Shown in pieces: positions 35,521 through 64,000 of a stretch of DNA of 64,000 bases. The DNA is taken from positions 26,221,440 to 26,285,439 of the forward strand of contig NC_081371.1 of assembly GCF_030684315.1 (NCBI RefSeq). Reading direction: 5' to 3'. The notes under the pieces are model-generated. The model was not told the origin of the DNA. It was given only the letters and a program-made list of their open reading frames with translations, and made no database searches. The stretch is from Stegostoma tigrinum. Its lineage: Eukaryota. Each line of letters starts with the position of its first letter. Positions within the stretch are counted from its first letter, which is position 1. The translations under genes were made by a program, and so were the position numbers.

Positions 35521-35792
35521 CTACATTTTATTACTAAACTGGATCACATATTCTGGGTAAATGTGATATTTCTCGAATATGACAAACAAAGATGGATTAT
35601 CCACACAGTCAACGCAGCTATCATAGGGTTTGAAGCTTGTGACATCTTGGGATGGTGGCCGATCATAGCTTGGATGTCCTTTAGTAAACTTTCCTACCAA
35701 AACCCGTGCCAAAAACATGATTTTGAAATTTGCTGTAGAATCTGAGTGCAAGTCAAAGTTGGCATTGGAAGCTTTTACGGCAAAATACGTCC
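35521..35792 (-). CDS. PARP12/ZC3HAV1-like protein, last coding exon (PARP domain C-terminal half)
   Basis: CTTTTCTTTTCTTCAG acceptor, phase 1; (G)TYFAVKASNANFDLHSDSTANFKIMFLARVLVGKFTKGHPSYDRPPSQDVTSFKPYDSCVDCVDNPSLFVIFEKYHIYPEYVIQFSNKM then TAG. Confidence 0.93.
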
Positions 35793-35933
35793 CTGAAGAA
35801 AAGAAAAGTATGCAAAGCTGTTAAATTCTACAGATGGGGAAAAGAAACAACTTCTTCTCAAAGATTCTCTAATTAAAAACAAGATTATAAGAAGAAAATG
35901 GAATAATCAAGCTATTTCCCATCTCAAAGAGAG

Positions 35934-36400
35934 CCATAGAGTTAAATGGTGTAAAAACAGACTCTTCAGTCCAACTCGTCTGCGCCGATCAGCTATCCTA
36001 AACTGATCTGTCCCATTTGCCAACATTTGGCCCACATCTCTCAAAACCCTTCCGTTTCATATAACAATCCAGATGCCTCCTAAATGTTGTAAATGTGCAC
36101 ACTTCCACCACCTCCTCTGGCAGTGCATTCCATACACGCACCACCTTCTGGTTTTGGACTACCCTACCATGGGAAAAAGACATTGGCTATTCACTTTATC
36201 CATGCCCCTTATGATTTCATAAACATCTGTTAGGTCACTTTTCAGCCTCCAATGCTCAGGGAAAATAGCTGCAGCCCAATCAGCGTCTCCCTGTAGCTCA
36301 AATGTGCAATCCCAGCAACATCCTTCTAAATCATCTCCGAACCTTTCCAAAGTTAACAACAACTTTCCTTTGGCAGGGAGACCAGAATGTATAATGTACA
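35934..36400 (-). mobile_element. CR1 3' fragment
   Basis: ORF 35998..36183 contains VVRVWNALPEEVVEV...FRRHLD. Confidence 0.8.
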
Positions 36401-36769
36401 TTGCGAATTTATGGATAGCTTTGATTTATGAAATATGGCCTATTGATCTTTTGAGTTCCATAAGCCAATTTAATTCCTGGGACTTCCACAGATTGAAAAT
36501 AATTTTTAAAAAAAGGGTCTGTTAACAATGTCTTAAAATAGCAACCAGAGTCACCTGACCCATTAGGTTGACCAAGTTTTATAAAACATACATAAATGAG
36601 TTGCTGGCTTAGGATTTGCTCTCTGTGTTTTCTCGCTGTCTCTGATATGCATTTTAAAAAGAGAGTGCATCATTTATTCAGCTGCATTTGGTGCAACAAG
36701 CCTAGCTGAGCTTCTCCCATGATTCAAAGTCAATATCAGAACTCCCAGTGAAGCCTTTAGTGTGGTCTT

Positions 36770-37920
36770 GTAGTGCTTTCTATTACTGTCATGACAGCGT
36801 ATCTCAGACACAAGCTCACCTTAGAAGATTTGCTTTGACAAGTGTGTTATCATGCAGTCTGGCTACGTGACCAGAAAACTCAATTAGGATCACTTGAAAA
36901 TGGCATGGATGCTTGGCATGCCAGCTCAGTTGAGTAGCTCAGAGTTTCCATCTCATTTCCCGCAGCTTTTGTAAACATCTCAATTAATGTGGTTGAGCTT
37001 CTTGGCATGATGCTGGCACACAGTTCATGTTTTGTATGCTTGGAGCAGAGTAGAAAGGACTAGACCTCCAAGTACCTTCAGTTTTGTTGTGGGGGTGGTG
37101 TGTGGATTTACTCCTTTTCAATTCTAGGCTGATGTTTGAAGTTTGCAGAAGGCTAAAATTGATTTGACAAATATTCTATTTGTTTTCTTGTCAGCATTCT
37201 CAGCTTGAAAGACTAAGTTGCTCAGTTAGATGAACTTATTCACTGCTGACAGGTTCTGGTAATAGACTGAAACCTTAAGGTCAAGACAGGAGTTTCCTGA
37301 AGCAGATTGATAGATTATTAGTTTTCTTTGTGTTGAAATTCATGCTGAAGTTGTTGCCTACATAGGGGAATAAATTTATCCTATATTGCATGTCCAAAGC
37401 TGAATTGGCAGCCAGAGCACAGACACTGGCAAACAGGAAAGTGCAAAGTATCCACCTGGAGTTTCTCAGACCCGGAAGCTTCCAGTACTTGTATCATTGA
37501 TATTGAAGTTAATATCATCATCATGGAAAACTTTGCTGAAGAGGGTTGGTATTCTATTAGTAGCTAGGAATGAGTCAGAAAATTCACCATCATCAAAGGC
37601 ATGTCCCAGCTGTTGTAGAACTGCCCAATCATTTGATGAATTTTTTGGGTCAGGTGCACTTTTGCAGTATCTTTAAAAGACACTCATGGTTGATTGCATT
37701 GAAGGCCTTGGTCAGGTCGACAAATGAGGTCTTTGGAATTTCATCTGGAGCTATCTAACTGTAAGCAATGCATCAATAGTTCCTCAATGTTTTCTGATAC
37801 TACATTGACTCTCTGCTGGTAGATTCTGGTGATGACATTGTACTAAGTGATTCAGAAAGATTCTGGTGAAGGTTTTGCCAGTGATGGAGGAAAATACCTC
37901 TCTGATTATCATGACTGTTT
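36770..37920 (-). mobile_element. Degenerate RTE-clade LINE RT fragment
   Basis: Reverse complement of ~37697-37730 encodes FVDLTKAFN, and a degenerate N-x-R-G-I-S-x-x-S-I-T-G-K lies near 37872-37908. Confidence 0.65.
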
Positions 37921-38744
37921 GCAGAGATTATCACAGTCCCCGGGAACCATTAATCAAATTTATCAAATTTGCCAAATAACCCCCAGATTAAGAATTTGAC
38001 AGCAGGTTTTGGCATTCTGTCCTTTTATTTTCACACAAGTTCAAACCAACATAAATTAAAATCAATTTTAATAAGTAAATGATACTTCAAAGAGAAAAGT
38101 TCAATTTGACATTAAGCGATACAAAAGCAAATACTTCTTGCAAATAACTGCACAATTTCACAAAATGCAGTTGCTTATTCACGCATGGCAGGCCAGAAGT
38201 CCCATCCAATACCTTTTATTTTGAGTTTCATAGGTTGAATTATCATTAATAAGGCACACTTTCATGAACCCTGTCTCCGTCAGGTCACAACAGAGTGGAT
38301 TGTGAAGCTCTCTAGACTTCCAATTCAACTGACCACACTAAAATACAGGTTCACATTTTGGCCACTTCCAAGCCAACAGTACGTAATATATCTAAGCTAT
38401 TCACAAACCTTCCCAGGTTTCAGACCTTCTTAGCTAGCTCTTCCAGTAATCTAAACCTTCTGGCTGCTCTTCTGCCAAAGAGAAAACTGATCGCCTGCTG
38501 AAAGAGGTTTGCTTCTTCTCACAAGAATTCTCTCTGTTTTGTTTCTAATTCCTCTTTGTGTCTGCAATTGTTTGTCGATTACCTTCATCCTCCAAGATCC
38601 TCTACTTTTCACTCTCTTTTTCCCTTTGTGCCTATCAGTAACACAGCTTCTTTTTTTATAAATACTTCCTGCTGATACTGTTTCCAGGTCAAGAATTGTC
38701 AGATCATGTGAGCCAATAATTCTGAAAATTTAAGAATTTTTAAG

Positions 38745-39225
38745 TTATTCGTTCAGATGTTGTGAGTTTCTCTGGCTGGGCCAATATTTATTGTTCATAT
38801 GTAATTGCCCTTGGGAAGGTGGTGTTAAGCTCTCTTCTTAAGCTGCTGAAGTTCATTTGGTAAAGGTACACCAACAATACCATTAGGGAGGTAGTTCCAC
38901 GATTCGACCCAATGACAGTGAAGGAATATCAATTATATTTCAAGGTTAGCATGCTGAGTGGCTTGAAGATGAACTTGCAGGTTGTGATGTTCCCATGTAT
39001 ATGCCTTTGTCCTTCCAGATGGTGGTGGTCGTGGATTTGGAAGACACTGTTTAAAAAACCTTGGTGAATTTCTGCAGTGCATCTTGTAGATGGTACACAC
39101 TACTGCCACTGTGCATCAGTAATGGAGTGAATGCATGTTTGTGGACATGATAAAACAAGTTACTTTGCCCTGCATAGTGCCGAGCCTTTTAAACATTTAA
39201 GGAGCTGCACTCATTCAGACAAGTG
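38745..39225 (-). mobile_element. CR1-group LINE 3' end, same family as 12295-13655
   Basis: Shared blocks such as CATCTTGTAGATGGTACACACTACTGCC and GCCCTTGGGAAGGTGGTG. Confidence 0.55.
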
Positions 39226-39235
39226 CTCTGGTGCA

Positions 39236-39888
39236 GAGATAGTAGGAACTGCAGATGCTGAAGAATCTGGGATAACAAGGTGTAGAGCTGGATGAACACA
39301 GCAGGCCAAGCAGCATTAGAGGAGCAGGAAAGCTGACCTTTCCGGTCTAGTCCCTTCTTCAGAAATGGGGGAGGGGAAGGGAATTCTGAAATAAATAGGG
39401 AGAGATGGATAAAAGAGAAGATAGGTGAGGAGAAGATAGACAGGTCAAAGAGGCGGGAATGGAACTAGTAAAGGTAAGTGTAGATGGGGAGTTGGGGGGG
39501 ACAGGTCAGCCCAGGAGGACGGACAGGTCAAGGGGGCAGGATGAGGCTGGGAGGTAAGAGTTGGGTGTCGGGCTTAAGGCGGGAGGAGGGAATAGGTGGG
39601 AGGAAGGACAAGTTAGGGAGACATCGAGCAGCTGGGCTGGACATGCACAGGATGGACATGTCGTTTGAGGAACGGGAGGGGGATTTGAAATGGCTCGTGA
39701 CTGGGAGGTACCAAAGATAGTTTTCCCTCCCCACCCTTATCTACTTTCCAGAGGGACCGCTCTCTCCATAACGCTCTCATCTGCTCCACACTCCCAAACA
39801 ACCCCACCACCCCAATAACATCAAAATTTCCTGCTCCTCTGATGCTGTTTGGCCTGCTGTATTCATCCTGCTTCACACCGTATTATCC
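39236..39888 (-). mobile_element. Neptune-type PLE terminal fragment with inverted end
   Basis: 39236-39600 is the reverse complement of the terminus at ~50930-51314. 39720-39888 is plus-oriented PLE sequence ending in the same terminal repeat. Confidence 0.8.
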
Positions 39889-40161
39889 TAGTTTGAAGTA
39901 ATTTGGTTTTCTCATGTTCTGCAGTTAGTTTCCAAGTCGGGTTCAAAGACTGGCTGAACTAAGGTACCTTCTATTACTTCAGATACCCTTATATAATTTC
40001 TTCTTAATTTTCAACCTCATTTGGAGCCATGTTTTCTCAGAAAGCACCCAACATTATAAATGTAAGACTCTGACTTTTCTCTATTTGGTACATTTTTGTG
40101 TGCTGAAAATTAATAATTTAAAATTAATTTTCATGCAGATTAATAAAACAAATTTCCCTAC

Positions 40162-40313
40162 CTTTTCCAAACAAAGTTCCACTCTGTGTGAAACTTCCCC
40201 AATCAAAGTTCTGGTAGCAAATGGCATCAATAATTGAGTGATCTGTGACTTCGTGAAAAAGAAGTCGTTCATCTGCATCTGCGTGATTCTTTTTCTTTAT
40301 CTGTTCTTTCTGC
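40162..40313 (-). CDS. PARP12/ZC3HAV1-like protein, penultimate coding exon
   Basis: ACACAG acceptor; 152 nt, phase 2-1; (W)QKEQIKKKNHADADERLLFHEVTDHSIIDAICYQNFDWGSFTQSGTLFGK(G); AAG|GTAGGG donor. Confidence 0.93.
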
Positions 40314-40814
40314 CTGTGTATCAGTACACAAAAAGACAAGTAAAAACTTTGGAAGAGCAACTAGGAAGAATTAAACTATAGATTTAGAGGTCTAATTTCT
40401 CCAAATTTGACTCTCTAATAGGCAGCATTGGGCAATAGGATGAGTATTTATTTTGCTATGTGCTGTGAGACCTTTGAGTGGAATCTTATCAGGCTGTAAG
40501 CAAAATGGACCAGGGCAAGACGAATGATAAAATCAGGCAAGCGTTTAGGCAAGCCCAACTCAGTATGCTTTTCTCTAGCAGCACGGTGAGAGTTCTTGCT
40601 AGGCAGTAGTAAGTTCCCAATTGGCACATATCATTGTTTGTTAAATGTCTTACTAACACCTCAACTTGCCATGGGTTGCAATCTTACAAATCTCACCAAG
40701 AAACTAGCCACTAGGAAAAACTCAACTTGGAAATCAGAGAAAGTTTCAACTTTGACGTCACCAATCGAATTCAGCATTTTACCGATGTTTGAACTAAGGC
40801 TGCACTGAGATCAG

Positions 40815-41518
40815 AAAATGAGTGGCAGTAAGCAGGTTGTTACTGCTGCCTGATAGCACTGTTGATGACACCTTCCATCACTTTACTGATGATCCAGAGT
40901 AAAATGATGAGGCAGTAAATGACTGGGTTGGATTTTGCACACAGGTCACATTGTTGAGTAGATATCAATGCACTGTTGCAACTGCACTGAAACAGCTTGG
41001 CTAGTGATGTGGCACATTCTGGAAAATAAGTCTTCAGTTCTCTTGCTGGAATATTGTCAGGGCCCTTGGTTTTGCAGAATTCAGGGTTTCAAGTCAATTC
41101 TTGATATCATGCAGAGTGAATCAAATTGGCTAAAGACTGCCATCTATGATGTTGGGGACATCTGGAGGAGGCCGAGATGGCTCATCAACTTGGCATGTTT
41201 GGCTGAAGATTGTGAATGCTTCAGCCTTATTTTTTGCACTGATGTGCTGGGCTCCTCCATCACTGAGGATGGGGATATCTATGAAGCCTCCTCCTCCAGT
41301 GAGTTTAATTTTTCACCTCCATTCACAACTGGATGTGGCAGGACTGCAGTGCTTAGATTGCATTCATTTTGGTTGTGGGATCACTTAGCTCTGGCTATCG
41401 TTTGCTGCTTATGCTGTTTGGCACACAATCAATCAGTTTTATAACTTCACCAGGTTGACATGTCATTTTTAGGCATTCCTGGGACTGCACCTAACATGCT
41501 ATCTTATATCTCTATTGA
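40815..41518 (-). mobile_element. CR1-group LINE RT fragment
   Basis: Reverse complement of ~40845-40932 encodes SNPVIYCLIILLWIISKVMEGVINSAIRQ, the degenerate YRPISLL region. Confidence 0.7.
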
Positions 41519-41767
41519 AAAACTTTAACCAAACTTTAAAAAAATACAGATAATCCATCAGCCCAGATTTCATTCTGGAATCTGACTTGCCAGGTGCTGT
41601 CTATTGCTCATTACAGAAGGAGTTTCTGAATTACAATTCAAAATGTGAAGGCTGCATGATTTGTTTTTCTTTCCATAATCCACATGCACTTATGCACGTC
41701 TGATGCAGCTCTGCATAACACAGAAGAGGTTGAAAACTGAACCTGGTAACTCATTGATCTCAAAGTT

Positions 41768-43143
41768 CATAAACAATGAGATATAGGAGCAGAAGCCTGC
41801 AGTTCAGTTTATTTAGCCTTGCTGCAATTCAATGATACTGTTGCTAATCTGATAATCCTCAACTCTACCTTCCTGTCTTTTCTCCGTAACCTTTGATTAC
41901 CTTGCCAATTAAAAATCTGTCCATTGCAGCCTTGAATATATTCAACTGCTCTCTATGGTAAAGAACTCCAGAGATTGACTATTCTCCAAGACAAAAAAAG
42001 ACCCTCCTCATCTCTGTTTGAAATGAGCAATCCCTTATTTTGAGATTATACCCTCTGGTCTGAGAATCTCTCAGCGGGGTAAAAACCTTTTCGTACCTAC
42101 TCTGTCAAGACTTCTAAGAGTCTTGTAGTTTCTATAAGGTAGTCTCTCATTCTTTTAAATTCCAAATGAGCATAAGTTCAACCTACTCAACCTCTCCTAT
42201 CAGAAAATACCTCCATATCCAGAATCAACCTAGTGAAATAAAGGCCAACATTCCAATTGCCTTGCCTATTACCTACTGAACCTGGATGTTAGCATTTTGT
42301 GTTTTGTGCATGAGTGCTCCCTATTCCCTCTGTGCTGTAGCTTTCTGCAGTCTTTTCCCATTTAAATGATATTTAGCTACCCTATTCTTCCTACCAAATT
42401 ACATAACTTCACATTTTCCCATATTATATTCCATTTGCCAATTTTCCCATTTATGCAATCTGCTTATACCCCTTTGTAGATTCTTTGTATCATCCTCACT
42501 GCTGGCCTTCCCACTATTTTTATGTCATCCACAGACTTGATAATTGTACATTGGCATCCCAGTTTCCATTCCTTAATTTATAGGTAAATCATTGTGGGAC
42601 CAGTGATCCCAGTGGCATTATTTATAAGTTGTCATCCAGCAAATGCTCCTTTTATCCCTACTCTCCATCTTCTATTAGTTAGCCAATCTCTATTCATGCT
42701 AATATCGTTTCTGCAATGATATAGGTCTTTTTTAAAAATTTACCTGTTCAGAAGTAGGGACACTACCATGGTGCCAGAAGAGCCAAACAACACAAGTCTT
42801 ATTGTAGTGATTGTAACAAGATCAACCAACTGGGCTTCATAAAATATGAGTTCCCTGATTGGGGCTATTTATCTGGTCTAATCAGAGGGCCCTGGCTGAT
42901 ATGTAAAGATTGAGCATCAGGGATACTAACACTGTGGTGTCTGACATGGTATGAGACAGTAATATTGTCATGTGTAAATAAAGGATGACTGAGTGATAGA
43001 ATGCTGCCCCTTATAGAGTAATTTCATTTATCTTATCAAGTGGCCTAATGCATGGTACCTTATCAACTGCCTTTACAATATCCAAATATATTACATTGAC
43101 TGCTCCGTTTGTCTGCTCTACTTGTCATCTCCTTGAAGAACTC
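41768..43143 (-). mobile_element. Old CR1 fragment containing a solo LTR
   Basis: CR1 tail at the left end and degenerate RT sequence up to GTCATCTCCTTGAAGAACTC. Confidence 0.7.
42803..43026 (+). mobile_element. Putative solo LTR (224 bp)
   Basis: TGTAGTG...ATTTCA termini, internal CTGATTGG/CTAATCAG inverted motif, AATAAA near the 3' end, and flanks CTTAT/TTTAT (imperfect 5-bp TSD). Confidence 0.6.
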
Positions 43144-44820
43144 AAAACAGAAAAAGATTATTGAAGACAAATGCAAATCTCTTACATTCAGAAACAGAGC
43201 AATGGGGGAACAAAGAGATGTCAGACTTATTTTGTACATACATTTGATTCTGTCTTCACAAGGGAAGATACAAAAAACATTCCAAAATGTTGTGAGTCAC
43301 AGGGTCTACTGACAGGGAGGAACTGATAGAAATCAATATTAGTAGTGAAATAATGTTGAGGAAATTGCTGGAAATAAAGAATGATAAATATCCAGGGCCT
43401 GATAATCTACATCTCAGAATACTTAAGCAATTTCTGGAGAAACAGTTGATACATTGATGGTAATATTTCAAGACTCTATAGCCTCTGGAACAGTTCCTAT
43501 GGATTGGAAGGTACTTGTTGTAACCGTCCCTACCCCCATTTAAAAAAGGAGGTAAGAGAGAAACTAAGGAAATATAAGCTGGTTAATTAGCCTGACATTG
43601 ACAGTGGGGGAAATACTAGACTCTACTTTAAAAGATTTAGCAGCAGAACATTTGGAAAACAGTGACTGGATAAGAGCATGGAATCATAAAGGGAAAATCA
43701 TGCTTGACAAAAGGACTGGAATTTCTCAAGAATGTGTCACAGGATTGATGCGGGGGCTCAGCAGATGGGCTTTACTTGGACTTTCAGCAGACTTTTGAGA
43801 AGCTCGAATTTAAGAGATTAGCATGTAAAAGTAAAGCACATAGAATTAGAAGTAGTGTATTGACATGAATAGAGAACTCATTACCAAATTAGAAAGAAAC
43901 AGTAGGAATAAATTTTTTTTTGAGTGGCAGGCAGCAACTAGTGGGATACCTCAGGGATCAGTGTTTGGATGCCAGCTGTTCACAACTCTATACCAATGAT
44001 TTAGATGGGCACCATATCTCCAAATGCGCAGATGACACAAAGCTGGGTGGGTGGGTGATCAGTGAGGAATGTTCAGAGGTGCTTCAGTGTGACTTGAACA
44101 AGTTGAGTGAGTGGGTAACTGAATGGCTGATGAAGAGTAATGTTTTGGAATGTGTGGTTATTACCTTGGTTGCAAAATCAAGTAGCAGATTATTATCTGA
44201 AAGGCAATAGATTGCGAAAAGCAGAGGTGCAACGAGACCTGGATGTCCTCGTAGATCAGTCACTAAAAGTAAGCACGCAGACACACAGGTGAGGAAGAAG
44301 GAAAATGGTGTGTTGTTTTCATAGAATGAGGATTTGAGTACACAAGCAGGGATGTCTTGCTGCATTTGTAGAAGGCCTTGGTGAGACCACACCTGGAAAA
44401 TTGTGTATGGTTTTACCAAAGTATATTTTGGCTGTGTAAGGGGCGCATTGGAGGTTTACCAGACTGATTCCTGGAACGGCAAGACTGATGTATGAAGGGT
44501 ATCTGGATCCATTAGGACTATTTTCACTGGAGTTCAGAAGATCAAGGGGGATGCCATAGAAACCTGCAAGATTTTAACAGCACTAGACAGGGTAAACACA
44601 AGAAGGATGTTTCCTTTGGTGACAGTTTAAGGATATGGATTAGGAAACCAGAGAATGGTGAACTTGTTGTATTCACTACCACAGAAAGAAGTTGAAGCTA
44701 AAACATTAAATATTTTAAGAAGGAATTATAGTTCTTAGTTCAACCATGATCATATTGAATGGTGGAGCAGGCTCAAAGTGCTGCATTGTCTGCTCCAGCT
44801 CCTTATTATTATGTTTCTAA
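43144..44820 (+). mobile_element. Degenerate CR1 RT to 3' end
   Basis: ISKCADDTKLGG in ORF 43920..44210; TATGTTTCT tail. Confidence 0.8.
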
Positions 44821-45340
44821 TAAATTTGCCAGGTAACTTCTCCTTCATTAACCTACATTGACTGCTTGATTATCTTTTACATTTCTAAATTCTCTACTAT
44901 TATATCTTTCACAACATACTCTAATATTTTCCCCATGACAGACATTAAACTATGTGGCCAATAGTTACCTGTTCTTTGTCTCCCTCTCTTTTTGAATAAT
45001 GGTGTTAAGTTAGTAGTTTTCCTATTTTCTGGGATTTCTCCTGAATTTAAGAATTCTTGGAAGATTACTGCCAGTATAACCACTTTCTCTGTAGCTAGTT
45101 CTTTTAATATCCTAGGATGCAATCCATCAGGTCCAGTGGACATATCAGTCTTTACCCTATTAGTTTCCTAGATACTTTTTCTCTCGTGATAGTTATCATG
45201 TTTATTTCAGCTTCCCTCTCCACTTTATTCCTTGATTTTCTCATAGTTTTGGAATATTATTAGTGTCTTCTACGGTGAAGACTGACATAAAGTATTTATT
45301 CAGTACTTTTGTTTCTTTCCTGTGTTCCCATTACTATTTC
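44821..45340 (-). mobile_element. CR1 ORF2 fragment
   Basis: ORF 44877..45143 contains STGPDGLHPRILKEL...PLFKKRGRQRTGNYWP. Confidence 0.8.
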
Positions 45341-46039
45341 TTTTTTAAACCTGTCCAGTGCCATCTATTTGTCCACCAAATTATCAGAATATCTTACTGA
45401 AGCAAACAAAACTATACTTCAAGCCTGAGGCCCCACTTTAATTTCCAATAAAACTCAAAATCACTTCTGATAAATGAATGCTATTTTGCTAACATATAAG
45501 AATAGCCTGTATCAAAAATAGTCATGAATATAAATTGATCTGTAAATGATCAACACAAAATAACTGCTTGAATTGTAAGGTGTAATTTTTTTTCTCTCAG
45601 TGCACGATAACACCCAAAACTTCAAATGAATTTCTTCCAAATGAATTGGAAATTACTTTTAAAAAGGAGTTTTTTAAAAAATCTTTCAGATTAATGATGT
45701 TGGCTGTCTAACATGGGGTTTTTGTTGTATAAGTATGACTTATGAGACAAAAATATCCAACATCACATGTAAATCACAAAAGTCTAAAAGTGGCACTTTT
45801 AATGAAATGAGGCATGATATAACACAGTGAGTGTATGGGAGGTTCATATTTTTTGACAACATTGATAAGTGAGTGCCTTTCAAAGTGAAGGACTTACAAA
45901 ATGATTTTTCACATTGCTCAGCAGAAGTATATTCCAGTAATTTGAAAGAACTGTAGGAAACGAGATATTCAGCCATTGATGTCCAAGGAAATAAAGGAAA
46001 GTATCATATTGAAAATAAAACACATACATAAAAGCAAAG

Positions 46040-47945
46040 AGTAGTGGGAAACTAGTAGACTAGGAAATTTATTAAAGGCCAACAGAAAGCCACAAAAAAA
46101 TTATAAAGAGAAGTAAGATAGATTATGAGAGTAAACTCGCTTATAATATAAAAACAGGCAGCAAAAGTTTCTATAAATATGTAAATTGTAAAAGCATGGC
46201 GAAGGTAAACATTGGTCCTTTAGAGGATGAGTAGGCCAATTTAATAACTGGGAATGAGGAAACAGCTGAGACATTAAACAGTTATTTTGTGTTGGTCTTC
46301 ACAGTGGAAGACACAAATAACATGATCACTAAGGAGCCAGTGCTGGGCAAGCTAATGGGTAAAGGTAGACAAGTCTCCTGGCTCTGATGAAATGTATCCC
46401 AGGATAATAAAAGAGGTGATGGGGGAAAATAGCAAATGCACTAGTAATTATTTACCAAAATTCACTAGGCTCTGGGGTGGTTCCCGCAGATTGTAAAACA
46501 GCCAATGTGACACCACTGTTTAAAAAAGGAAGTGGACAAAAAGCAGGCAACTATAGGCCAGTTAGCTTAGCTTCGGTAGAGGCGATAATGCTTGAATCTA
46601 TCACTAAGGAAGAAATAGTAAGACATCTGGATATAAATTGTCCCATTGGGAACATCCAGCATGGGTTCAAGAAGGGTAAGTCATGTTTAACTAATTTGGT
46701 GGAATTCTTTGAGGACATTACTTACATGGTGGACAATGGGGAACCTGTGGATGTGGTGTATCTGGATTTCCAGAAGGCATTTGACAAGGCGCCACACCAA
46801 AGACTGATACATAAGATAAAGTTGCATCGTATTACAGGTAATGTACTGGCATGGATAGAGGATTGGTTGACCAGTAGAAAGCATACAGTAGGGGTAAACT
46901 GGTATTTTTCTGGTTGGTGGTCAGTGGCTAGTGGTGTGCCTCAGGGATCAATGTTAGGACTGCAATTGTTTACAATTTACATAGATGATTTGGAGTTGAG
47001 GACTAAGTGTGGCGTTTCAAAATTTACAATGGCACTAAGATGAGTGGTAGAGCAAAGTGGGCAGAAGACACTGAAAGTCTGCAGAGGGATATAGATAGTC
47101 TAAGTGAGTGGGTAAAGGTCTGACAGATGGAGTACAATGTTGTTACGTGTGAGGTCATCCATTGTGGTAGGAATAACAGCAAAATGGACTATGTTTTAAA
47201 TGGTAAAAATTTGCAACACACTCCTGTGCAGAGGTACTTGGGCATCCTTGTGCATGAATCGCTAAGAGTAGGATTGCAGGTGCAGCAGGTAATTAAAAAG
47301 GCAAATGAAATTTTGTCTGTCATTGCTAGAGAGATGAAGTTTAAAAACAGGGAGGCTATACTGCAGCTGTATAGGGTCCTGGTGATGCCACACCTGGAGT
47401 ACTGTGTGTGCAGTTTTGGTCTCCTTACGTGGGAAGGGATATACTAGCACTGGAAGGGGGTGCAGAGAAGATTCGCTCAGTTGATTCCAGAGTTGAGAGG
47501 GTTAGATTATGAGAACAGACTCAGTAGGCTGGAATTATACTCATTGGAATTCAAAAAAATGAGGGGAGATCTTATAGAAACTTATAAGATTATGAAGGGA
47601 ACAGATAAGGTGGAGGGAGGGAGCAGCACCAGCAGGTGAAATGAGGGCTAGGGGGCATAGCCTCAAAATAAAGGGAAGCAGATGTAGGACTGAGATCAGG
47701 AGGAACTTCTTCACCCAAAGGATCGTGAATCTGTGGAATTCCCTGCCCAGTGAAGTGGTTGAAGCTACCTTGCTGAATGTTTTTAAGGCAAGGCTAGATA
47801 AATTTTTGAACAGTAATTAAGGGTTATGGTGAGTGGGTGGGTAAGTGGAGCTGTGTCTCGAAAAGATCAGCCATGATCTTCTTAAATGGTGGAGCAGGCT
47901 TGAGGGGCCAGATGGCCCACTCCTGCTTCTAGTTCTTATATTCTT
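46040..47945 (+). mobile_element. CR1 ORF2 RT region and 3' UTR, frameshifted
   Basis: ORFs 46477..47043 (NYRPVSL, YLDFQKAFDK, GVPQGS) and 47127..47447; TTCTTATATTCT tail. Confidence 0.88.
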
Positions 47946-49277
47946 TAAAGGCATAATGCTCAGCATGCAGATAAGTTCATTCTCAAAGCTTATAAACTCA
48001 GAGCAAGCAAACATGATATTAAATGAATTACTAAGCAACTGAAAGTGAGATGAAACAGAAACATGACATGGAAAAAGGTATTGGGACACACAAAAAGTTA
48101 TAAGAGAAAATGTAAAAACACTTTACAGCATTGAACAATGGATCAAAGGGAGGTCTCAGCAATTGAGACCGAGCATCACAGTAAAATAAATTATTTCACT
48201 AACACAATAACAAGAGAGTAAAGGAGTAGGTGATACCCATGGGAGATACAGTGAAATGGGAAATGAGTGCAAAATAGTAAATAATATTTCCAAGAGTTCA
48301 TGTGATAAGATATGAGCATTGTGTCTACAGAAGACATAAGGTATAAATTCATGAAATCTGTGCAGAAAAAAAAGTTTTCAACCTAGATAAGACAATTTGG
48401 TCTATAATTTCCTGAATTATCCCTTTTCCTCTTGAGTCAGACTGCAATATTAGCAGCTCTCCAATCTTTTATCAGTAATAATCTGTCCAAAGATTTTAAG
48501 AAAATTCTGGGTATACTTCCTTCCTCTTGTCTGGCATTCTGAAATGCATTGTCTCGAAGCATGACTACTTTTCTATTTTTAGCTCAATTAACTCTTAAAG
48601 ACAGTTCTGTTCTAAATATCTGAGTGATGTATTTCTTCTTATTTGGATGAGGGCATTATTGGCTGCGCCAGAATCTGTTGCTCATTCCCAGCTGTCTTTC
48701 AGAAGGTGGTGGTGAGCAGAACCGTTAATATGGGAATTCCAGAATTTTGACCTCGTGACAGTGAAGGAATAGCGAATGTAGTTCCAAGTCAAAATGTCAA
48801 ATAGGCATCCACTTTCATTGTGTTCATACCACTATTAATTAACAGAACAATCCTCAACCTTTTCTTTGTGTTCTGTCATTCTTAAACGTCATGGAACCTG
48901 TAACATCCACGCTGTTGTCCTGCAGCGATGTGTCTTCAATAGCTGCCAGATCATACCTATTCAATTCTATTTGTGCTGTCAGTTCATCTGTTTTGCTTTG
49001 ACATCTACTTGCATTTAGATACAGAGCCTTTAGTTCTGTCTTTTTATTATTTTTGTAACCTCCAATCTTATCTGCTGATTTACGTTTAAATTTGTACTCT
49101 ACTTCCTTTCCTGTCACAGTCTGTTTATCATTTCCGATATTGGTGCCTTTCTCTCCTCCCTTTTGATTTTATGACATCCTCACAAATTTGATCCCTTGCA
49201 GTCACTATTTAGTTTTAAAACCTCTCCATTTCCCTAGTTATGTTCCACTTTATGGCAGTGGCCCAACACAATTTCAA

Positions 49278-51317
49278 CCAACCCTGCGCCGCCTGCTTCT
49301 AGCTCCTTCCCAAAATCCACAAATCTGCCTGATTTGGTCAACCTATTGTCTCCACCTGCTCCTGTCCCACTGAACTCATCTCTACCTATCTGGACTCCAT
49401 GTTATCCCCCTTGGTCCAGGAACTCCCTACCTGCATCCATGACACAACCCACACCCTCCACCTCCCCCAGAACTTCCAATTCCCCGGTCACCAACACCGC
49501 ATTTTCACCATGGATGTCCAGTCCCTATACACCTGCATTCCCCATACAGATGGCTTAAAGGCCCTCCACTTCTTCCAGTCCGGCAGGGCCGACCAGTCAC
49601 CCGCCACTGACACCCTCACCCGTCTAGCCGAACTCGCCCTCACCCTCAACAACTTCTCTTTTGATTCCTCCCACTTCCTACAGACAAAGGGGGTGGCCAT
49701 GGGTACCCACATGGGCCCAAGCTTTGCCTGCCTTTTTGTAGGTTACGTGTAACAATCCCTCTTCTGTACCTACACTGGCCCCAAACCTCTTCCTCCGTTA
49801 CACTGACGACTGTATCAGTACCGCCTCGTGCTCCCATGAGGAGCTCGAACAGTTTATCCACTTCACCAACACCTTCCACCCCAACCTCAAGTTCACCTGG
49901 ACTGTCTTGAACACCTCGCTCACCTTCCTGGACCTCTCTGTCTCCACGTCATGCAGCCACCTAGAAACCGATATCCATTTCAAGCCCACCGACTCCCACA
50001 GCTACCTAGAATACACCTCCTACCACCCACCTTCCTGCAAAAATTCCATCCCCATTCCTAATTCCTTCACTGCCACTGCAGTTGCTCACATGATGAATCA
50101 TTCCACTCCCGTACATCTCAGATGTCCTTGTTTGTCAAGGATCGCAACTTCCCCCCCACAGTGGTCAAGAACGCCCTTGACTGTGTCTCCCACATTTCCC
50201 GCAACTCATCCCTCACACCCCGTCCCCACAATAATCACCAAAGCAGAATACTCCTTCATACTCACGTACCACCCCACCAACCTCCGGATCCAACGCATCA
50301 TCCTCCAACACTTCCGCCATCTGTAATCTGGCCCCATCACCAAAGTCATTTTTCCCTCCCCACCCTTGAATGCTTTCCGGAGGGACCACTGTCTTCGTGA
50401 CTCCGTTGTCCGCTCCACACTCCCCTCCAACCCCACCACACCCGGCCCTTTCCCCTGCAACCACAGGAAGTGCTACACCTGCCCCCACACCTCCTCCCTC
50501 ACCCCCATCCCAGGCCCCAAGAAGACTTTCCACATCAAGCAGATGTTCACCTGCCCATCTGCCAATGTGGTATACTGCATCCGCTGCTCCTGTTGTGGCC
50601 TCCTCTATATCAGGGAAACCAAGCAGAGGCTTCGGGACCACTTTGCAGAACACCTCCGCTCGGTTCGCAACAAACAACTGCACCTCCCAGTTGCAAACCA
50701 TTTCAACTCCCCCTCCCATTCCTTAGATGACATGTCCACCCTGGGCCTCCTGCAGTGCCACAACGATGCAACCCGAAGGTTACAGGAACAGCAACTCATA
50801 TTCCGCTTGGGAACCCTGCAGCCCAATGGTATCAATGTGGATTTCGCAAGCTTCAAAATCTCCCCTCCCCGCTACTGCATCCCAAAACCAGCCCAGCTCG
50901 GCCCGCCTCCCTAACCTGTTCTTCCTCTCACCTATCCCCTCCTCCCATCTCAAGCCGCATCCTCATTTCCTTCCTGCTAACCTAATCCCGCCCCTTTGAT
51001 CTATCTGCCCATCCCGGACTGACCTATCCGCTCCCTACCTCCCCACCTACACTCACCTTTACTGGCTCCATCCCCGCCTCTTTAACTTGTCTGTCTCCTC
51101 TCCACTTATCTTCTCCTCTATCCATCTTCGATCCGCCTGCCCCTCTCTCCCTATTTATTTCAGATCCTTCTCCCCCTCCCCCATTTCTGATGAAGGGTCT
51201 AGGCCCGAAACGGCAGCTTTTGTGCTCCTAAGATGCTGCTTGGCCTGCTGTGTTCATCCAGTTCCACACCTTGTCATCTTGCATTCTCCAGCATCTGCAG
51301 TTTCTATTATCTCTGAT
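49278..51317 (+). mobile_element. Neptune-type PLE, 5'-truncated: RT, Cys-rich linker, GIY-YIG and terminal repeat; 10-bp TSD
   Basis: FTMDVQSLYTCIP, QTKGVAMGT and LTFLDL RT motifs; PCNHRKCYTC linker; VVYCIRCSCCGLLYIRETK. TSD ACAATTTCAA at 49268-49277 and 51318-51327. The hammerhead core at 51187-51214 has a mutated GGC triplet. Confidence 0.92.
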
Positions 51318-53029
51318 ACAATTTCAAGTGTAGAGTGTCCCAATGATAAAGCTGCCACTTTCTGCAGTACTGGTGCCAGTGCATCATGAATTCAAACCCA
51401 CTGCTACCGCATCAGTCTTTGAACTACATATTCATCTCTCTAATCTTTATTAATCTATACCAATTTATGTGTAGATCAGAGATTAATCAAAGAGTGTTAC
51501 CTTTGAGTAGTGCTTCATAATTTAGTGTCAAGATCCTAATACTGACTACAGAAATTTTTCTGCGTCCTGTATATGTCATTAGTACCTCTATGGATGATGG
51601 TGACCAGATCCCCACCTTCCGGCTCTAAGTTTCTCTCAGGGTATGAGCAGATGTCCCAAATGTAGGTACTTGGCAGGTAATAAAGACCTTGGGAGTCTTG
51701 CACTTTTCTGCAGAGAATAATGTCAATCCCATTTACTATAATGTTACAATTATCATTGCTACCCTTCTGCCGCCCCCACTTGAATGGCTTTCTGACAATG
51801 CTGTCATCGTCATCTTGCTCATCCAACTGCTCCCGCTAAACACCTGTAAAGCCTGCATGCCCTCTGAGCAGCCTATTCACTCACTTAGGGCATCTCTGCA
51901 CCTGTGCACAGCAATATCTGTGCCACCAATTTTCATCTTCCATATTACCTTTCTCCCTCTTTCCAAGAAGAAACATCCCACAATAGGACAGAAATAATTA
52001 TGACAATGGTGTGCTGCCTACCATTTGGTTCCTCACCTTTTATGAGGACAGTAGCTTGACTCTTAATGTTTCAAACAGGATTGATGTTGAAGACTTGTAC
52101 TGTGCCAGGAACCCTTGAGAGAAGGCTATCCTCCTTGACTTTACTGAGACATGCTGACAACCAAGAAAATCTTCTTGGCTTTTTTTGTGCACTAAATGGC
52201 AAAGCAAGGCAATAGTTATATGAATCTGGTATCTCTGGCTAAGGGTACAAAGACCAAAAAGACAAGGTAAGGCAATGCAAGGCTTGGATGCTGTGAGCAT
52301 CTAGGTAGGCTCAGAGTGAGTGAGCATTCTGAGAGTGAGCGAAGAGCCTGAAGATACAGCCTGGTCCAGTCAATGAACTGGGCGTGTGTCCCTGAGTGAA
52401 CAGCGTTCTTACAATGTTAGTTTCCAGTGTACCTGAGGGGCAGCAATGACATTCAGAAGTGTCATATGAGTGGATTGTTGATTTGAGAAGAAGGTTCATA
52501 GAGGCTGGCAAAATGGGACATCAATGTCTGTGGATGTGGGGTACGTGCAACTGGTGCCCATAGAGTGTGCACTGAAATATTAGTACCTGTTTCCAACAGA
52601 AGTGTTGTTTGGAGCTGAATTCACCAGGTACTTACTCTGATTTGCACATGAAACTTTCCTGAAGTCTAATTTGTTGGTTAGTTTGCTAATTTCAGAATCT
52701 GAACAATAATGAGGTGAATTGGGCTATCAAAAAGAAGGTTAACATGTATTAATCTTCAACAACTGGCAACTCATTGCTGACTAGCAAGAAACTTGCCATC
52801 TTGCTTGTGGGAAGTGGAAAAATGGAGCAAGATGATCGCTTTATTGAGATCCGCTTTATTGCACTTCTCATCTCATCCTGCCACACATGTCAGCAAAGCC
52901 TATGTCCCTCAAATCTTTATAAGATTTAATCTTTACACTGAATCTTTACACTGCTTCAGGTTGTGAAAAAGACTTAAGACGTTTTCAGGCAGGTATAGAT
53001 ATGTATATTATATAATACATATATATAGA

Positions 53030-53860
53030 TGAATCAATGAGCAGCAATCTGGAAGATGGCGTGTAATATGTGAAGTTGTTGACATTGGTAGGAAGAATTA
53101 AAAAAGCAGTGTATTCGTCAAATGGACAGCAACTGTGGAATTCTGAGGTACAGAGTAGTCTAGGTGTTGTAATACATGAGTAACAGAGAGTTTGTATGAA
53201 GGTACAGCATGTAATGACAGAGCCTTTTTGCCGGTGGGGGGGGGATTTGGACATAAATGGATGTTATGCTTCAGAACACTAAGCTTCACTGTGTCCAATT
53301 TTGGTTTCCTTACTTAAGGAAAAATGTCACTGCATTACAGGTTGCTCAGAGGTAGTTTACTTGATTAATACCTGGACTAGGTTGTTCTATGAAGAAAAGT
53401 TGTCCTATTTTGGTCAGGCTGGGCTTATGTCCACTGGAGTTTAGAACAGTGAGGAATGAAATGATTGAAATGTCTAAGATCCTGAACAATCTCAACAAGG
53501 TGGATATGGAAAGGATATTTGTGCACATGGATGAGTCCACATCTAGGGGTCACTATTTTAAAATTAGGGACACCCTCTTAGGATGGAAAGAGGAGTTACT
53601 TTTCTCCCAGATGGTGTTGAGACTTTTGAACGCTTTGCTTTAGAAGGCAGTAGGAGCAGGGCTACTAAATAAGGGAGAGGTATAATGACATCTTTAAGAG
53701 AGAGGTAAAAATATTCTTCTTAGACAAGGAACCAAAGTTATTGGGAGTAGATGGGAAAGGGGAATTCAAATACAAACTGATCAGCTAGAACTTTATTCAA
53801 TGGTGAAGCAGGCTTGAGGGGTCAAATGACTTACGTCTGCTCATATTATACATATCTTTC
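53030..53860 (+). mobile_element. Old CR1 3' fragment
   Basis: ORF 53389..53643 contains RLGLCPLEFRTVRNEMIE...SRGHYFKIR...FSQMVLRLLNAL. Confidence 0.75.
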
Positions 53861-54041
53861 CCATCTCCAGTGCTCTCCTTCGTGCTGTTTATGTAGCCTC
53901 TGTGGCTCTTTATGTTGTTTCTCTTTCCAAATCTCCCTATCTTGCTCTTGACTGCCTTGTTACATTTGTCTAGTAACAGAATGTTGTAAGTAGGTAGATA
54001 TTAATTGTATTGATAGTTGCATATGATAGTGCTTTACAAAC

Positions 54042-54172
54042 CACTGAAATATTTCCCAAAGTCCAAGGTTTTGAATTCTGTCAATTTTCTGGATATTGCC
54101 AGTCTTCATGCTGTTCTCGAAGAGAGACTGGATTTTCTTATATTCATTGGAGAGTGGAGAGAGCTGGGTACG
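54042..54172 (-). CDS. PARP12/ZC3HAV1-like protein, coding exon (PARP domain N-terminal part)
   Basis: TTCTTCTTGCAG acceptor; 131 nt, phase 0-2; RTQLSPLSNEYKKIQSLFENSMKTGNIQKIDRIQNLGLWEIFQ(W); TG|GTTTGT donor. Confidence 0.92.
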
Positions 54173-55006
54173 CTGCAAGAAGAATCCAGACCGTGAGCAT
54201 ACAACCGAGAATATTAAAATAAAACTTTATTTTATCGAGTTTATTTTATGATCAAATGTTCCCGTCAGGGAAATCATCTTGGGGTGTGGTTGGGGAGTGA
54301 TGGTAGGCTTATAGCCAATTACTGTTTTCTCATTAATGAATAGGCCATGCTTCCTAGCTGGTTGGTACTACAGTATAAGCTCATGTACTGTCCACATATG
54401 GATCCAATAGGAGACAGCTGCATTGATAACGTGGCCAGCATTTTGATTACCTTCAACAAGGAACAACATGTCAGAACATCCAGTGTGTTTCCAAAGTGCA
54501 GCAGGTGGCACACTGATATTTACATAGTCCGTCTGTCAGTAAGGGCCTGTAATGTGTGAAATACACTGAAGAACCATGAAACACTTTGACAAATTTATAA
54601 GCTTGAATGAGGACTTCGTGTTGGCAAATAGTAACTCGGTAACAGACTAATAGATAAGGCCTTAGAGCATGGAATTATCTTCTCAAGAGCTGCTGAATGG
54701 TACCTGGTAAATTGCACCATCTTACTCTACCAGGTTCCTTAAAGCATTTTATCACCTATCTTTCCATTTCAAAGATGGCGGTGCTTGCGTAGTTGGTAGT
54801 GTTTGGTCTCCTGAGCACGTCTGCTCCACGGAGGCTACAGCCTTCTCTCTCTCTCCTTTCTCATCTTTATCTTCATCCTATTTCTTTTCTTCATCTTCTG
54901 ACATCATGGGGAAACCGAAGTGGTGTGGTGGGCATCAGCTGCAATGGTGGCAGTGCCTGGAGCGAAGACTCCTGGCTGCCAGAAGCCCACAGTATGGACT
55001 TGGGGA

Positions 55007-55744
55007 TGTATACTGCATCCACTGTACCTGGTGTGGCTTCCTCTACATTGGGGAAACCAAGCGGAGGCTTGGGGACCGCTTTGCAGAACACCTCCGCTCG
55101 GTTCGCAATAAACAACTGCACCTCCCAGTCGCAAACCATTTCCACTCCCCCTCCCATTCTTTAGATGACATGTCCATCATGGGCCTCCTGCAGTGCCACA
55201 ATGATGCCACCCGAAGGTTGCAGGAACAGCAACTCATATTCCACTTGGGAACCCTGCAGCCTAATGGTATCAATGTGGACTTCACCAGCTTCAAAATCTC
55301 CCCTTCCCCCACTGCATCCCAAAACCAGCCCAGTTCATCCCCTCCCCCCACTGCACCACACAATGAGCCCAGCTCTTCCCCTCCACCCACTGCATCCCAA
55401 AACCAGTCCAGCCTGTCTCTGCCTCCCTAACCTGTTCTTCCTCTCACCCATCCCTTCCTCCCACCCCAAGCCGCAGCTCCATCTCCTACCTACTAACCTC
55501 ATCCCACCTCCTTGACCTGTCTGTCTTCCCTGGACTGACCTATCCCCTCCCTACCTCCCCACCTATACTCTCATCTCCACCTATCTTCTTTTCTCTCCAT
55601 CTTCGGTCCGCCTCTCCCTATTTATTCCAGAACCCTCACCCCATCACCCTCTCTGATGAAGAGTCTAGGCCCGAAACGTCAGCTTTTGTGCTCCTGAGAT
55701 GCTGCTTGGCCTGCTGTGTTCATCCAGCCTCACATTTCATTATC
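55007..55744 (+). mobile_element. Neptune-type PLE 3' fragment (GIY-YIG plus terminal repeat) with 13-bp TSD
   Basis: VYCIHCTWCGFLYIGETKRRLGDRFAEH; TSD ATGGACTTGGGGA at 54994-55006 and 55745-55757. Confidence 0.92.
55651..55682 (+). ncRNA. Minimal hammerhead ribozyme motif
   Basis: CU-CUGAUGA-AGAGUCUAGGCCC-GAAAC-GUC-AG, with a palindromic ACGU stem III and one mismatch in stem II. Confidence 0.7.
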
Positions 55745-56562
55745 ATGGACTTGGGGACTCGGGCTTTTGGCTGCAGCTGAGGCATTGCCTGGAGTGTGGG
55801 GACACCTGGCTATGGTATGCTTGGAGCATGATTGTCATTGCTGTACCTTGAGGCCCAGGACGCTTTGTAGAGATCTTACAGAAGCCCTGGAGCCATGTTT
55901 GAAAGACCCGTTGTACAGAAGATGAACTCTTTTTATGTAATTTCTTTTTAGTCTTTTTGTAACCTAAAACGGCATTGGATCGTGGTGGCAAATCACTTTT
56001 CACTGTATCTTTCTATATATATATGACAATGAATAATTCATATGCTATATTTATGCTCTGCACAGCACTGAGCCTTACCACTTCCGGTTAAGCAGTTCCA
56101 GCACAGCAAACGATCTTGTAAATAACTGATGTAGCAACTGTGCCACATTGTCATCCATCAAGAAAGAATATCAGGGCAGCTTTAGTTTGCCAATTGTCAG
56201 GCAATTCTGTTTGATTTTATTTCAATATTTGTTCTTGGTTGTTAATTTTTTCCATGACCCTCTAAAAGGGTTGAACGCTTTAAAAATAATTTTAAATGCA
56301 TTAATAAGTCTTAATATCACATTCCACACCCCGATCCCAAAAAAGGCCGCTGAATAATCCAGTTCAGCAATGATAACATGTAGACTCAATTCTAGATGCC
56401 TGCCAATCTCATTTCATTATGCAAGACCTAAGCCACGGGGAGTGGATGATGGACCAGTGTCTTTTAGCAGGAATTGTAAATTTGTGCTCAAATACTTTAA
56501 ATGTGAATTGGCTGCTGCAGAATCTCAGTATCACTAATGTGTAATAGAGGAAATGTTTTTAC

Positions 56563-56656
56563 CGTGTATCCTATGCTTGTCAAAGCTGACTTGTCCCAAT
56601 AATCTGGTACACTTTTTGATTCGCAGGAACTGGCTTTCCTTAGTTGCGACCGAACA
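56563..56656 (-). CDS. PARP12/ZC3HAV1-like protein, linker exon preceding the PARP domain
   Basis: TTTTACAACAG acceptor; 94 nt, phase 2-0; VRSQLRKASSCESKSVPDYWDKSALTSIGYT (cf. the PDYWD motif of PARP12); ACG|GTAAAA donor. Not in the supplied ORF track. Confidence 0.88.
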
Positions 56657-56878
56657 CTGTTGTAAAATTAAAGAATATTAAATATTACCCAATATTATAC
56701 AATGCAGAGTTATCTAAGACACTTGCAACATTTGTGCATTTTGCCATCAGTGAAATAGATGTCAGAGGTTAAGAAGTAAACATTCTTTACATTTTGGTAT
56801 CAGTTTCACCAAACATTCCCAAACTCAGTACAACACAGGAGAGAGGTTAAAATAAAACAAAGAAATCCAGATGCATCT

Positions 56879-61199: not shown

Positions 61200-61330
61200 T
61201 TAGCGCAGATGCTGGAATCTATATTGAAAACAAAAAAAAATGCTGGGAATCACCACTGGACAGATAGCATCCATGGAGAGGGGCCAAGCTAACATTTTGA
61301 ATCGAGGTGACGCTTCATCAGAGCTGATGT
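61200..61330 (-). mobile_element. PLE terminal fragment with decayed hammerhead motif
   Basis: Minus strand reads AGCT-CTGATGA-AGCGTCACCTCGATTC-AAAATGTT-AGCT followed by ...TCCAGCATCTGC. Confidence 0.6.
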
Positions 61331-61419
61331 GAAGTGTGGAGGGAGCAGCATTTTTGCAAAAATAGGATGGTAGCTGAATGGGAGTGCAGCTATTCATTTT
61401 ATCTGAGTGGGAGTGCAGC

Positions 61420-62029: not shown

Positions 62030-62059
62030 CCAGGGACAGTAAAATATTTAATGTTTTAA

Positions 62060-63410: not shown

Positions 63411-64000
63411 AATGTGTCATTTCTAGAGATACTGCGGCATGATTGAAAAATCCAAGATTGGAACAAGGCAAGGGAAGGACCATTTTGTGAAATAATGGAG
63501 GGAAGAGACATTGGAGGATGACGATACAGTCAAGAAATGCAGAGGTGGTAACGTGGCAGGTGAATGTTGTGGAACCAACAATGGCAACACGTGGTTTTGG
63601 TAGAGTACTGCCACCACTCCTTGTTTCAAGCTGAATCAAATGGTCCACTTAACTGGTTGAGGAGAAACCCCTATTAAATTTTAATGAGAAGAGACACTTG
63701 TCTTATGCAACAAGATTAGTTTACTACAAGTTATTTTGACTAGTAAGATATAATTTCAAAGACTATTAAGAGCCAAAGGAGACATGTCTATCTCCAACAG
63801 GGGCTTGTGTTACATTGTTTCTTCACACAAAGACTCTGTGCATTATCAAACTGTATGGACTTAATCCAACTTCAAGATTAACTCTTTCAGAACCTTTACT
63901 TTACATAACAGAGATCAAGGGAAAATACTGTTTTGCAGACATGGTTACACAGTCTGTAATTTGTGGCTTTTGATTAATGCCATTGTGTGCTATGGCAAGG

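Follow-up and report, generated by a model that had tools for sequence, protein, structure and literature searches.

A PARP12-like gene on the zebra shark minus strand

The window analysed here is a 64-kb stretch of the zebra shark (Stegostoma tigrinum) genome (G000:C22:26221440-26285439), whose minus strand carries the 3′ part of a PARP12-like gene. Its last exon matched P0001, a 657-amino-acid (aa) S. tigrinum protein named PARP12-like by NCBI, at 100%. With 200 kb of upstream DNA added, a single set of GT-AG boundaries yielded P0001 exactly, as 12 exons that join into 1974 nt with no stops. The four in-frame exons noticed in a preliminary description of the window are exons 9–12, each with AG/GT ends; the eight further exons lie upstream, outside the window (Table 1). 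These encode the CCCH fingers and WWE domains that had been expected of them: Pfam matches above cut-off in P0001 were WH_PARP12, zf-CCCH_PARP12, WWE_4, WWE and PARP, and both this domain order and a place in the PARP12 branch of our trees uphold the proposed family membership. The second WWE domain (WWE2), whose ADP-ribose pocket is eroded, is encoded in exons 6–8. The PARP domain scored 76 bits, against 126 in an intact paralogue (termed HG) that lies on contig C9 beside a third copy (YG). The C-terminus reads QFSNKM-stop, ending at 35521, and the CaaX box is absent, as already described, both from P0001 and from the C-terminus of every orthologue shown.

Table 1. Features of the PARP12-like gene, in window positions unless a genome coordinate is given
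Feature	Position	Strand	Content	Basis
Exons 1–8	G000:C22:26286342-26323223	-	winged helix, CCCH fingers, WWE1, WWE2	
Intron 8	56657..64000	-	continues past the end of the window	
Exon 9	56563..56656	-	aa 442–473; linker and start of PARP region	exon reconstruction
Exon 10	54042..54172	-	aa 474–517	exon reconstruction
Exon 11	40162..40313	-	aa 517–568; His-Glu motif, one-residue insertion, altered donor loop	exon reconstruction
FHEVT motif	40244..40258	-	His537, Glu538	translation
Donor loop	40163..40207	-	aa 553–567	alignment, model
Exon 12	35521..35792	-	aa 568–657 and stop; triad Tyr570, Asn577, Ala578, two-residue insertion, His583, Leu636, no CaaX	exon reconstruction, alignment
YFAVKASNANFD motif	35752..35787	-		translation
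Segment Y570–H583	35746..35787	-	nicotinamide-site Tyr, Ser and stacking-Tyr positions	

Substitutions in the NAD+ site

The nicotinamide moiety of nicotinamide adenine dinucleotide (NAD+) is hydrogen-bonded by a Gly and a Ser and stacked upon by two Tyr, which are G888, Y919, S927 and Y932 in PARP10 and, for the last three, Y1633, S1641 and Y1646 in PARP14, placing Ser at +8 and the second Tyr at +13 (portions of PMC9189837). In a family alignment, the zebra-shark protein has Glu538 at the Gly position and Ala578 at the Ser position, and its catalytic triad is H537-Y570-L636. The family motif FHGT reads FHEVT, with the Gly lost and, relative to human PARP12 (2pqf), one residue inserted after the His-x pair; elasmobranchs have this insertion and the chimaera does not. 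The usual YFARDAxYSxxY is replaced by YFAVKASNANFD, with two extra residues after the Ser position. These motifs and the H-Y-L triad are as first reported. PARP1 G863, S904 and Y907 had also been equated with Glu, Ala and Asp, of which the first two assignments stand, while the two-residue insertion places the third column on H583 rather than D581. The stacking Tyr lies at +11 in PARP12 and at +13 in the shark clade. H583 is the better placement, since Tyr occupies this column in 7 of 11 orthologues and PARP10 and PARP14 share the +13 register; the ungapped reading of Asp as the stacking position is probably wrong.

The standard dead mutant of PARP10 is G888W, with a bulky residue in place of this Gly (excerpts of PMC8485830), and by analogy Glu538 would be inactivating as well. 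Further changes surround the core. The residue seven after the triad Tyr (Tyr+7; Asn577 in zebra shark) was lost in 11/11 orthologues and invariant in 46/46 other rows, and the family-conserved Arg, Cys, Gly and His of the donor loop (556, 558, 559 and 561) were substituted in most of the clade. Core losses differed by lineage: Gly-to-Glu occurred in five carpet sharks only, Gly was Arg in Narcine, His-Gly was Cys-Ser in the chimaera, the triad Tyr was His in rays, and Ser was kept in 4 of the 11. Where an active transferase has His-Gly, Tyr, Ser, a stacking Tyr and the donor loop, the zebra-shark protein has Glu538, Ala578, His583, Asn577 and a changed loop; these substitutions make it very probably catalytically dead.

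Conserved columns, defined by a conservation of at least 90% across 29 bony-vertebrate PARP12s, were scored in 11 rows of the zebra-shark clade, nine of HG and eight of YG. Changes in the zebra-shark clade affected 13/23 NAD-site columns against 12/51 in the rest of the PARP domain (Fisher p 0.008), for a segment chosen after the regional conservation was already known. The HG control gave 3/23 and 5/51 (p 0.70). The fold appears to be retained, as had been proposed. Human PARP12 (2pqf) was the best sequence and fold match (E 1e-53), and a predicted model, with a mean predicted local distance difference test score (pLDDT) of 80.5, reached a template modelling (TM) score of 0.90 to 2pqf, although the underlying alignment is dominated by intact PARP12s and the model is silent on pocket shape or access. 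Model confidence was low at 556–562 (pLDDT under 50) and at 582–585.

Erosion of the WWE2 pocket and sparing of the fingers and WWE1

Of the four regions scored, WWE2 and the PARP domain had lost conserved columns. None of the 42 columns in the winged helix and fingers 1–4, and none of the 25 in finger 5/WWE1, was lost in the zebra-shark clade, against 5/25 in WWE2 and 13/74 in the PARP domain; over the same four regions HG lost 0, 0, 0 and 1. Among five sharks, for which the lamniform species is not the same in both clades, identity in the N-terminal region was 75% in the zebra-shark clade and 70% in HG, and in the PARP domain 75% versus 86%.

In ZAP, W611 stacks on adenine, N670 and T675 bind phosphates, and W611A abolishes binding of poly(ADP-ribose) (PAR), according to parts of PMC8853533. 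Alignment to the ZAP central domain (7kzh, numbered from the chain start, which agrees with the residues in that paper) placed W611, Y659, Q668, N670 and T675 on M362, E404, Q413, D415 and S420. The Trp, the Tyr and a following Arg were lost in all 11 orthologues and the Asn in 10 of them, whereas HG (9 rows) and YG (8 rows) kept Trp, Tyr, Gln, Asn and Arg throughout. We consider it quite probable from this pattern that WWE2 no longer binds ADP-ribose. The loss of this pocket sets the gene apart from ZAP, which keeps PAR binding.

Integrity and splicing of the gene

Contigs of two public sequencing runs, X5 (same species label, from another study) and X11 (another organism), ended at both edges of exon 11 when aligned to it. 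Their loose ends read into exon 12 on one side and, on the other, matched the last part of exon 10 as cut at its in-frame donor. One 1772-nt X11 contig spans exon 12 and exon 11 in succession. As neither run carries an RNA record (the type of X11 is a guess), nor does any other run listed as carrying the sequence, these contigs speak to spliced form and not to level, tissue or induction. The FHEVT codons had no alternative letter in 4/4 runs, and the motif is also present in four other carpet-shark species. Changed codons in exon 11 were silent in 3/4 cases in X11 and 3/5 in X7, a classing that rests on 4 and 6 base differences within one exon. One loose end of X11, 30 letters long, departs from exon 12 at four third codon positions of the derived motif, none of which alters its amino acids.

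The odd motifs, together with a weak-looking exon 10 donor that sits beside an out-of-frame one, are all that might suggest a recent pseudogene or an assembly error, two outcomes that the preliminary description had raised against itself. The unbroken 12-exon frame, in which exons 1–8 join without disabling mutations, the in-frame spliced contigs and orthologues in 18 species rule out the former; the constancy of FHEVT across runs and carpet sharks rules out the latter. We regard the chance of either as very slight indeed.

At 54038-54041, the in-frame donor of exon 10, TG|gtttgt, is followed 4 nt further on by a stronger-looking gtaaag. Use of gtaaag would shift the frame and bring a stop in exon 11, and a PARP-less or decayed isoform might arise in this way.

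Three chondrichthyan PARP12 copies and their descent

Orthologues were found in 18 chondrichthyan species: five carpet sharks, two lamniforms, Heterodontus, two catsharks, Mustelus, Pristiophorus, Heptranchias, four batoids and the chimaera Callorhinchus. The matches listed (33; best 120 of 734; best 120 of 205) included no skate orthologue, a weak hint that skates have lost the gene. In a 54-row tree, the chondrichthyan PARP12s fell into three clades, and the chimaera is represented in each of them. The lineage is thus older than the shark–chimaera split, and the Gly-to-Glu change is a carpet-shark step only. The other two paralogues form a tandem pair on C9, comprising the intact HG (P0042, C9:19.14-19.17 Mb) and YG (P0059, C9:19.09-19.13 Mb; G000:C9:19086631-19126064, L049-L053). 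In YG, the NAD+ site shows His-to-Tyr in 7/8 rows (His is kept in the chimaera), Thr-to-Trp and Ser-to-Ala, with 11/23 NAD-site columns changed (p 0.011) and the WWE2 pocket fully intact; no ray member was among the matches listed. YG is not a ZAP orthologue (approximately unbiased (AU) test, p 0.005) and is likely, on its substitutions, a second pseudoenzyme that converges on the lesion of ZAP.

All trees were quick searches. In a 43-row tree of chosen rows (aa 262–654, with eight ZAP and four invertebrate-type outgroup rows, and without PARP11, TIPARP, or lamprey or lungfish ZAP), the zebra-shark clade fell within a 27-row PARP12 branch (Shimodaira–Hasegawa-like approximate likelihood ratio test (SH-aLRT) 95). 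ZAP orthology was not supported, the clade grouping with PARP12 and not with ZAP, although forcing it with all eight ZAP rows (AU p 0.049) or with three therian ZAPs (p 0.032) was rejected only at the borderline. All three chondrichthyan copies may form one lineage-specific clade (SH-aLRT 90–92), or the zebra-shark gene may be the orthologue of bony-vertebrate PARP12; a tree uniting its clade with the latter was not rejected (AU p 0.32).

Newt, frog and turtle ZAPs retain His-Gly, Tyr, Ser and Tyr, as do chicken and alligator ZAP by the sections of PMC8102003 that bear on them, while Gly was Ala in 3/3 therian ZAPs seen. The intact pockets of amphibian and turtle ZAPs, set beside the three therian losses, make inactivation of ZAP late and mammalian; any catalytic loss in sharks is therefore separate, whatever the orthology. 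Of the convergent inactivation of a shark duplicate first envisaged, independence from ZAP is thus borne out, while the lineage itself predates the shark–chimaera split. The lesions had been called different from those of ZAP, which holds for the triad (H-Y-L versus Y-Y-V) and fails at the Gly, also lost in therian ZAPs.

Simon et al. (2025) describe three lineage-specific PARP12 paralogues in cartilaginous fish, and their alignment holds chimaera and white-shark orthologues of the zebra-shark gene labelled PARP12; the portions of that paper to hand do not discuss pocket residues, and 'catalytic' has no match in the portion of the supplement text covered (PMC12204182). No paper on inactive chondrichthyan PARP12s was among the entries listed by literature searches, with subscription journals outside their coverage, and the predicted pseudoenzyme case is apparently unreported.

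An interferon-response element and the zinc fingers

A match to the interferon-stimulated response element (ISRE) consensus, AGTTTCACTTTC, lies 78–89 nt upstream of the ATG (C22:26323301-26323312), and both C9 paralogues have like motifs, ~105 and ~120 nt before their start codons. Only six ISRE matches occur in 664 kb, and three of them are these, each no more than ~120 nt ahead of a paralogue's ATG. The immune context proposed for the gene gains from this arrangement, and in the available part of 10.1101/693333 parp12 is an ancestral interferon-stimulated gene in fish and human. The ISRE makes the zebra-shark gene likely to be interferon-induced.

In finger 2, three of the five CpG-reading residues of ZAP have equivalents (Y98, K107 and Y108 as Y108, K116 and Y117). 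CpG reading is not predicted, because the Lys-Tyr pair also occurs in some ordinary PARP12s and its positions are His or Asn in several orthologues of the zebra-shark gene. Human PARP12 showed no detectable RNA cross-linking. Direct RNA binding by the zebra-shark protein is a tentative suggestion from its fingers, with the balance tilted slightly against it.

Interpretation and alternatives

On balance, and by a narrow preference, we favour a full-length PARP12-family protein, predicted to be enzyme-dead and unable to bind ADP-ribose, whose zinc fingers likely serve the interferon response. An ancestral chondrichthyan copy would first have lost constraint on both ligand pockets, leaving the changes common to the clade at the donor loop, Tyr+7 and WWE2, after which core residues would have decayed lineage by lineage in carpet sharks, Narcine, chimaera and rays, with the active PARP12 on C9 (HG) covering catalysis. 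The gene would be induced together with both paralogues, and its product would neither use NAD+ nor read ADP-ribose. It would most likely act through the zinc fingers and WWE1, the WWE and PARP folds probably being kept as structural or protein-binding scaffolds. During infection the fingers might bind RNA or an RNA-decay partner, which is, with antiviral action, the least certain step. According to the relevant part of PMC8568172, ZAP-L has a dead PARP domain that helps it to bind cofactors.

Several observations weigh against this reading. Five core pocket residues (His, Gly, Tyr, Ser and the +13 Tyr) are all kept in two of the 11 orthologues, Heterodontus and Heptranchias; Narcine retains the donor-loop Arg; and H-Y-L is the triad of the active PARP14 and PARP15 (portions of PMC9189837). 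The retrospective choice of the NAD-site segment and the make-up of the model alignment count on the same side. The buried WWE2 residue equivalent to Q668 is kept in 11/11 orthologues, and the lower PARP-domain identity among sharks would fit a partly vestigial domain. In the fingers, ZAP K89 and F144 correspond to Arg99 and Ser153, making the CpG pocket match only partial, and the Lys-Tyr pair, present in the ordinary PARP12s of Amia and Dromiciops, is not ZAP-specific.

The intact core of Heterodontus and Heptranchias would suit a clade of weak or re-specified transferases, with another acceptor or activated by a partner, in which only some lineages, perhaps the carpet sharks among them, are dead. 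The stacking Tyr can occupy +13 as in PARP10 and PARP14, and in the zebra shark itself His537 and Tyr570 are kept and the third residue of the triad is still hydrophobic. Four separate lineages have nevertheless lost different core residues, the core positions vary within the clade with no fixed new state, and the loss of Tyr+7 throughout the clade contrasts with its invariance elsewhere; we hold this explanation to be improbable. We judge it similarly unlikely that the protein, induced alongside active PARP12, regulates it or serves as its decoy, pairing with it through WWE1 or the PARP fold or absorbing viral antagonists aimed at it. Such a role would account for the untouched columns of finger 5/WWE1 and the ISRE common to all three paralogues, and human PARP12 self-associates through WWE1 (sections of PMC5656619), but the winged helix and fingers 1–4 are better conserved among sharks than those of HG, a sign that they have some function themselves.

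As with short ZAP or ZC3HAV1L, the N-terminal fingers might instead carry all of the function, leaving WWE2 and PARP as a slowly decaying folding appendage. A PARP-domain identity 10 points below that of the intact paralogue, a PARP-less isoform model in Narcine (P0061), the Pristis gene annotated as two pieces (P0315, P0010) and the want of a skate orthologue among the matches listed would agree with this. The domain is in frame from chimaera to carpet sharks, however, keeps 39/51 conserved columns outside the NAD site and is as conserved as the fingers, and we think an appendage of this kind unlikely to be the answer. The favoured enzyme-dead protein could also be placed in a broader scheme, a division of PARP12 before the shark–chimaera split into three interferon-induced states, a writer and reader (HG), a reader only that converges on ZAP (YG) and a copy that does neither (the zebra-shark gene). 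The last, at the ancestral PARP12/ZAP neighbourhood, would be an ADP-ribose-independent RNA-sensing restriction factor, its ZAP-like role separately invented in a lineage thought to lack ZAP; on sequence grounds this is conceivable but rather doubtful.

Comparison with known PARP proteins

The zebra-shark protein resembles human PARP12 (ARTD12) in its domain order (winged helix, CCCH, two WWE, PARP) and comparable length, want of a CaaX box, place inside the PARP12 clade and an ISRE as in the intact shark paralogue. It differs in the substituted NAD+ site (Gly, Ser, Tyr+7, donor loop and two insertions) and WWE2 pocket, PARP12 being an active mono-ADP-ribosyltransferase and the zebra-shark protein predicted dead. 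Like the mammalian long form of ZAP (PARP13/ZC3HAV1), it is a PARP12 relative with a PARP fold kept but predicted dead, a lost Gly position and, in finger 2, equivalents of Y98, K107 and Y108. Unlike ZAP, it falls outside the ZAP clade, has neither the long central linker nor the CaaX, reads H-Y-L where ZAP has Y-Y-V, Ser at F144 and Arg at K89, and has an eroded WWE2 pocket where ZAP binds PAR. In its central domain the protein is therefore not ZAP-like. Nor is it the closest mimic of the ZAP lesion: YG has the same architecture, an ISRE and a damaged NAD+ site, and with His-to-Tyr and an intact WWE2 pocket is nearer the state of ZAP.

Dead PARP domains are already known in ZAP, PARP9 and TASOR. 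PARP9 (triad Q-Y-T) and TASOR, the latter as given in a literature listing, likewise have a PARP fold without catalysis, but belong to other subfamilies and architectures with no CCCH-WWE module. In sharks there appears to be a natural series of copies with one parent, intact, His-to-Tyr with WWE2 intact, and with both pockets eroded, all with an ISRE. This series bears on why ZAP-L retains a dead PARP domain and what part ADP-ribose binding plays in its antiviral action. With the three copies to compare, it becomes testable whether catalytic loss recurs on the way to antiviral or scaffold functions, and whether vertebrates without ZAP have a functional stand-in. The database name 'mono-ADP-ribosyltransferase PARP12-like' is in use although two of the three copies are probably not enzymes.

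Genomic neighbourhood and other genes

DENND11 (single-copy, minus strand) lies ~45 kb upstream of the gene. Matches elsewhere on C22 included NDUFB2 (24.3 Mb), an MKRN gene (23.3 Mb), MRPS33 (2.8 Mb), a JmjC-helix gene (0.47 Mb) and PARP11 (47.2 Mb), the MKRN, JmjC-helix and PARP11 matches being, we assume, MKRN1, KDM7A and PARP11. We take DENND11, NDUFB2, MKRN1, MRPS33 and KDM7A to be human 7q34 neighbours of PARP12 and ZC3HAV1. UBN and LUC7 matches lay on C26, C27 and C50 with none on C22, so the 7q34-type block has been rearranged. Since grouping with bony-vertebrate PARP12 was not rejected and the neighbours are of 7q34 type, the damaged copy may be the one at the ancestral PARP12/ZAP locus and not the moved duplicate.

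An SLC6 neurotransmitter-transporter gene lies upstream on the plus strand, together with DENND11, at C22:26.36-26.49 Mb (L022-L023, L028-L033). Head to head with the PARP12-like gene, ~1.9 kb upstream of its ATG, is a plus-strand copy of exportin-1 (XPO1; L017:9687 to L018:1550), intronless, truncated and split over frames, apparently a processed pseudogene. Within the window, a single-copy open frame of 311 codons (21281-22216, plus strand) encodes 281 aa from its first ATG (21371-22213), Pro-rich and then acidic. It had no Pfam family, no second genome copy and no Atlas match above 0.75, and could represent one large exon of a gene so far unrecognised.

Among further PARP genes, the ray-finned-fish PARP12-like proteins P0149 (reedfish), P0152 (mormyrid), P0159, P0171 and P0174 are long, have CaaX-like C-termini and branch outside PARP12 and ZAP; going by these termini, prenylation of the C-terminus may be older than tetrapod ZAP or have arisen in parallel with it. 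Two last exons, at G000:C17:32.80 Mb (L005) and C58:14.47 Mb (L008), which we take to be TIPARP-like, suggest two TIPARP-type genes in the zebra-shark genome. The introns are filled with many retroelement fragments, presumably of CR1/L2 and Penelope type (877-2466, 46420-47447, 49238-50999, 56780-58741 and elsewhere), including a reverse-transcriptase frame of 529 codons at 877-2466.

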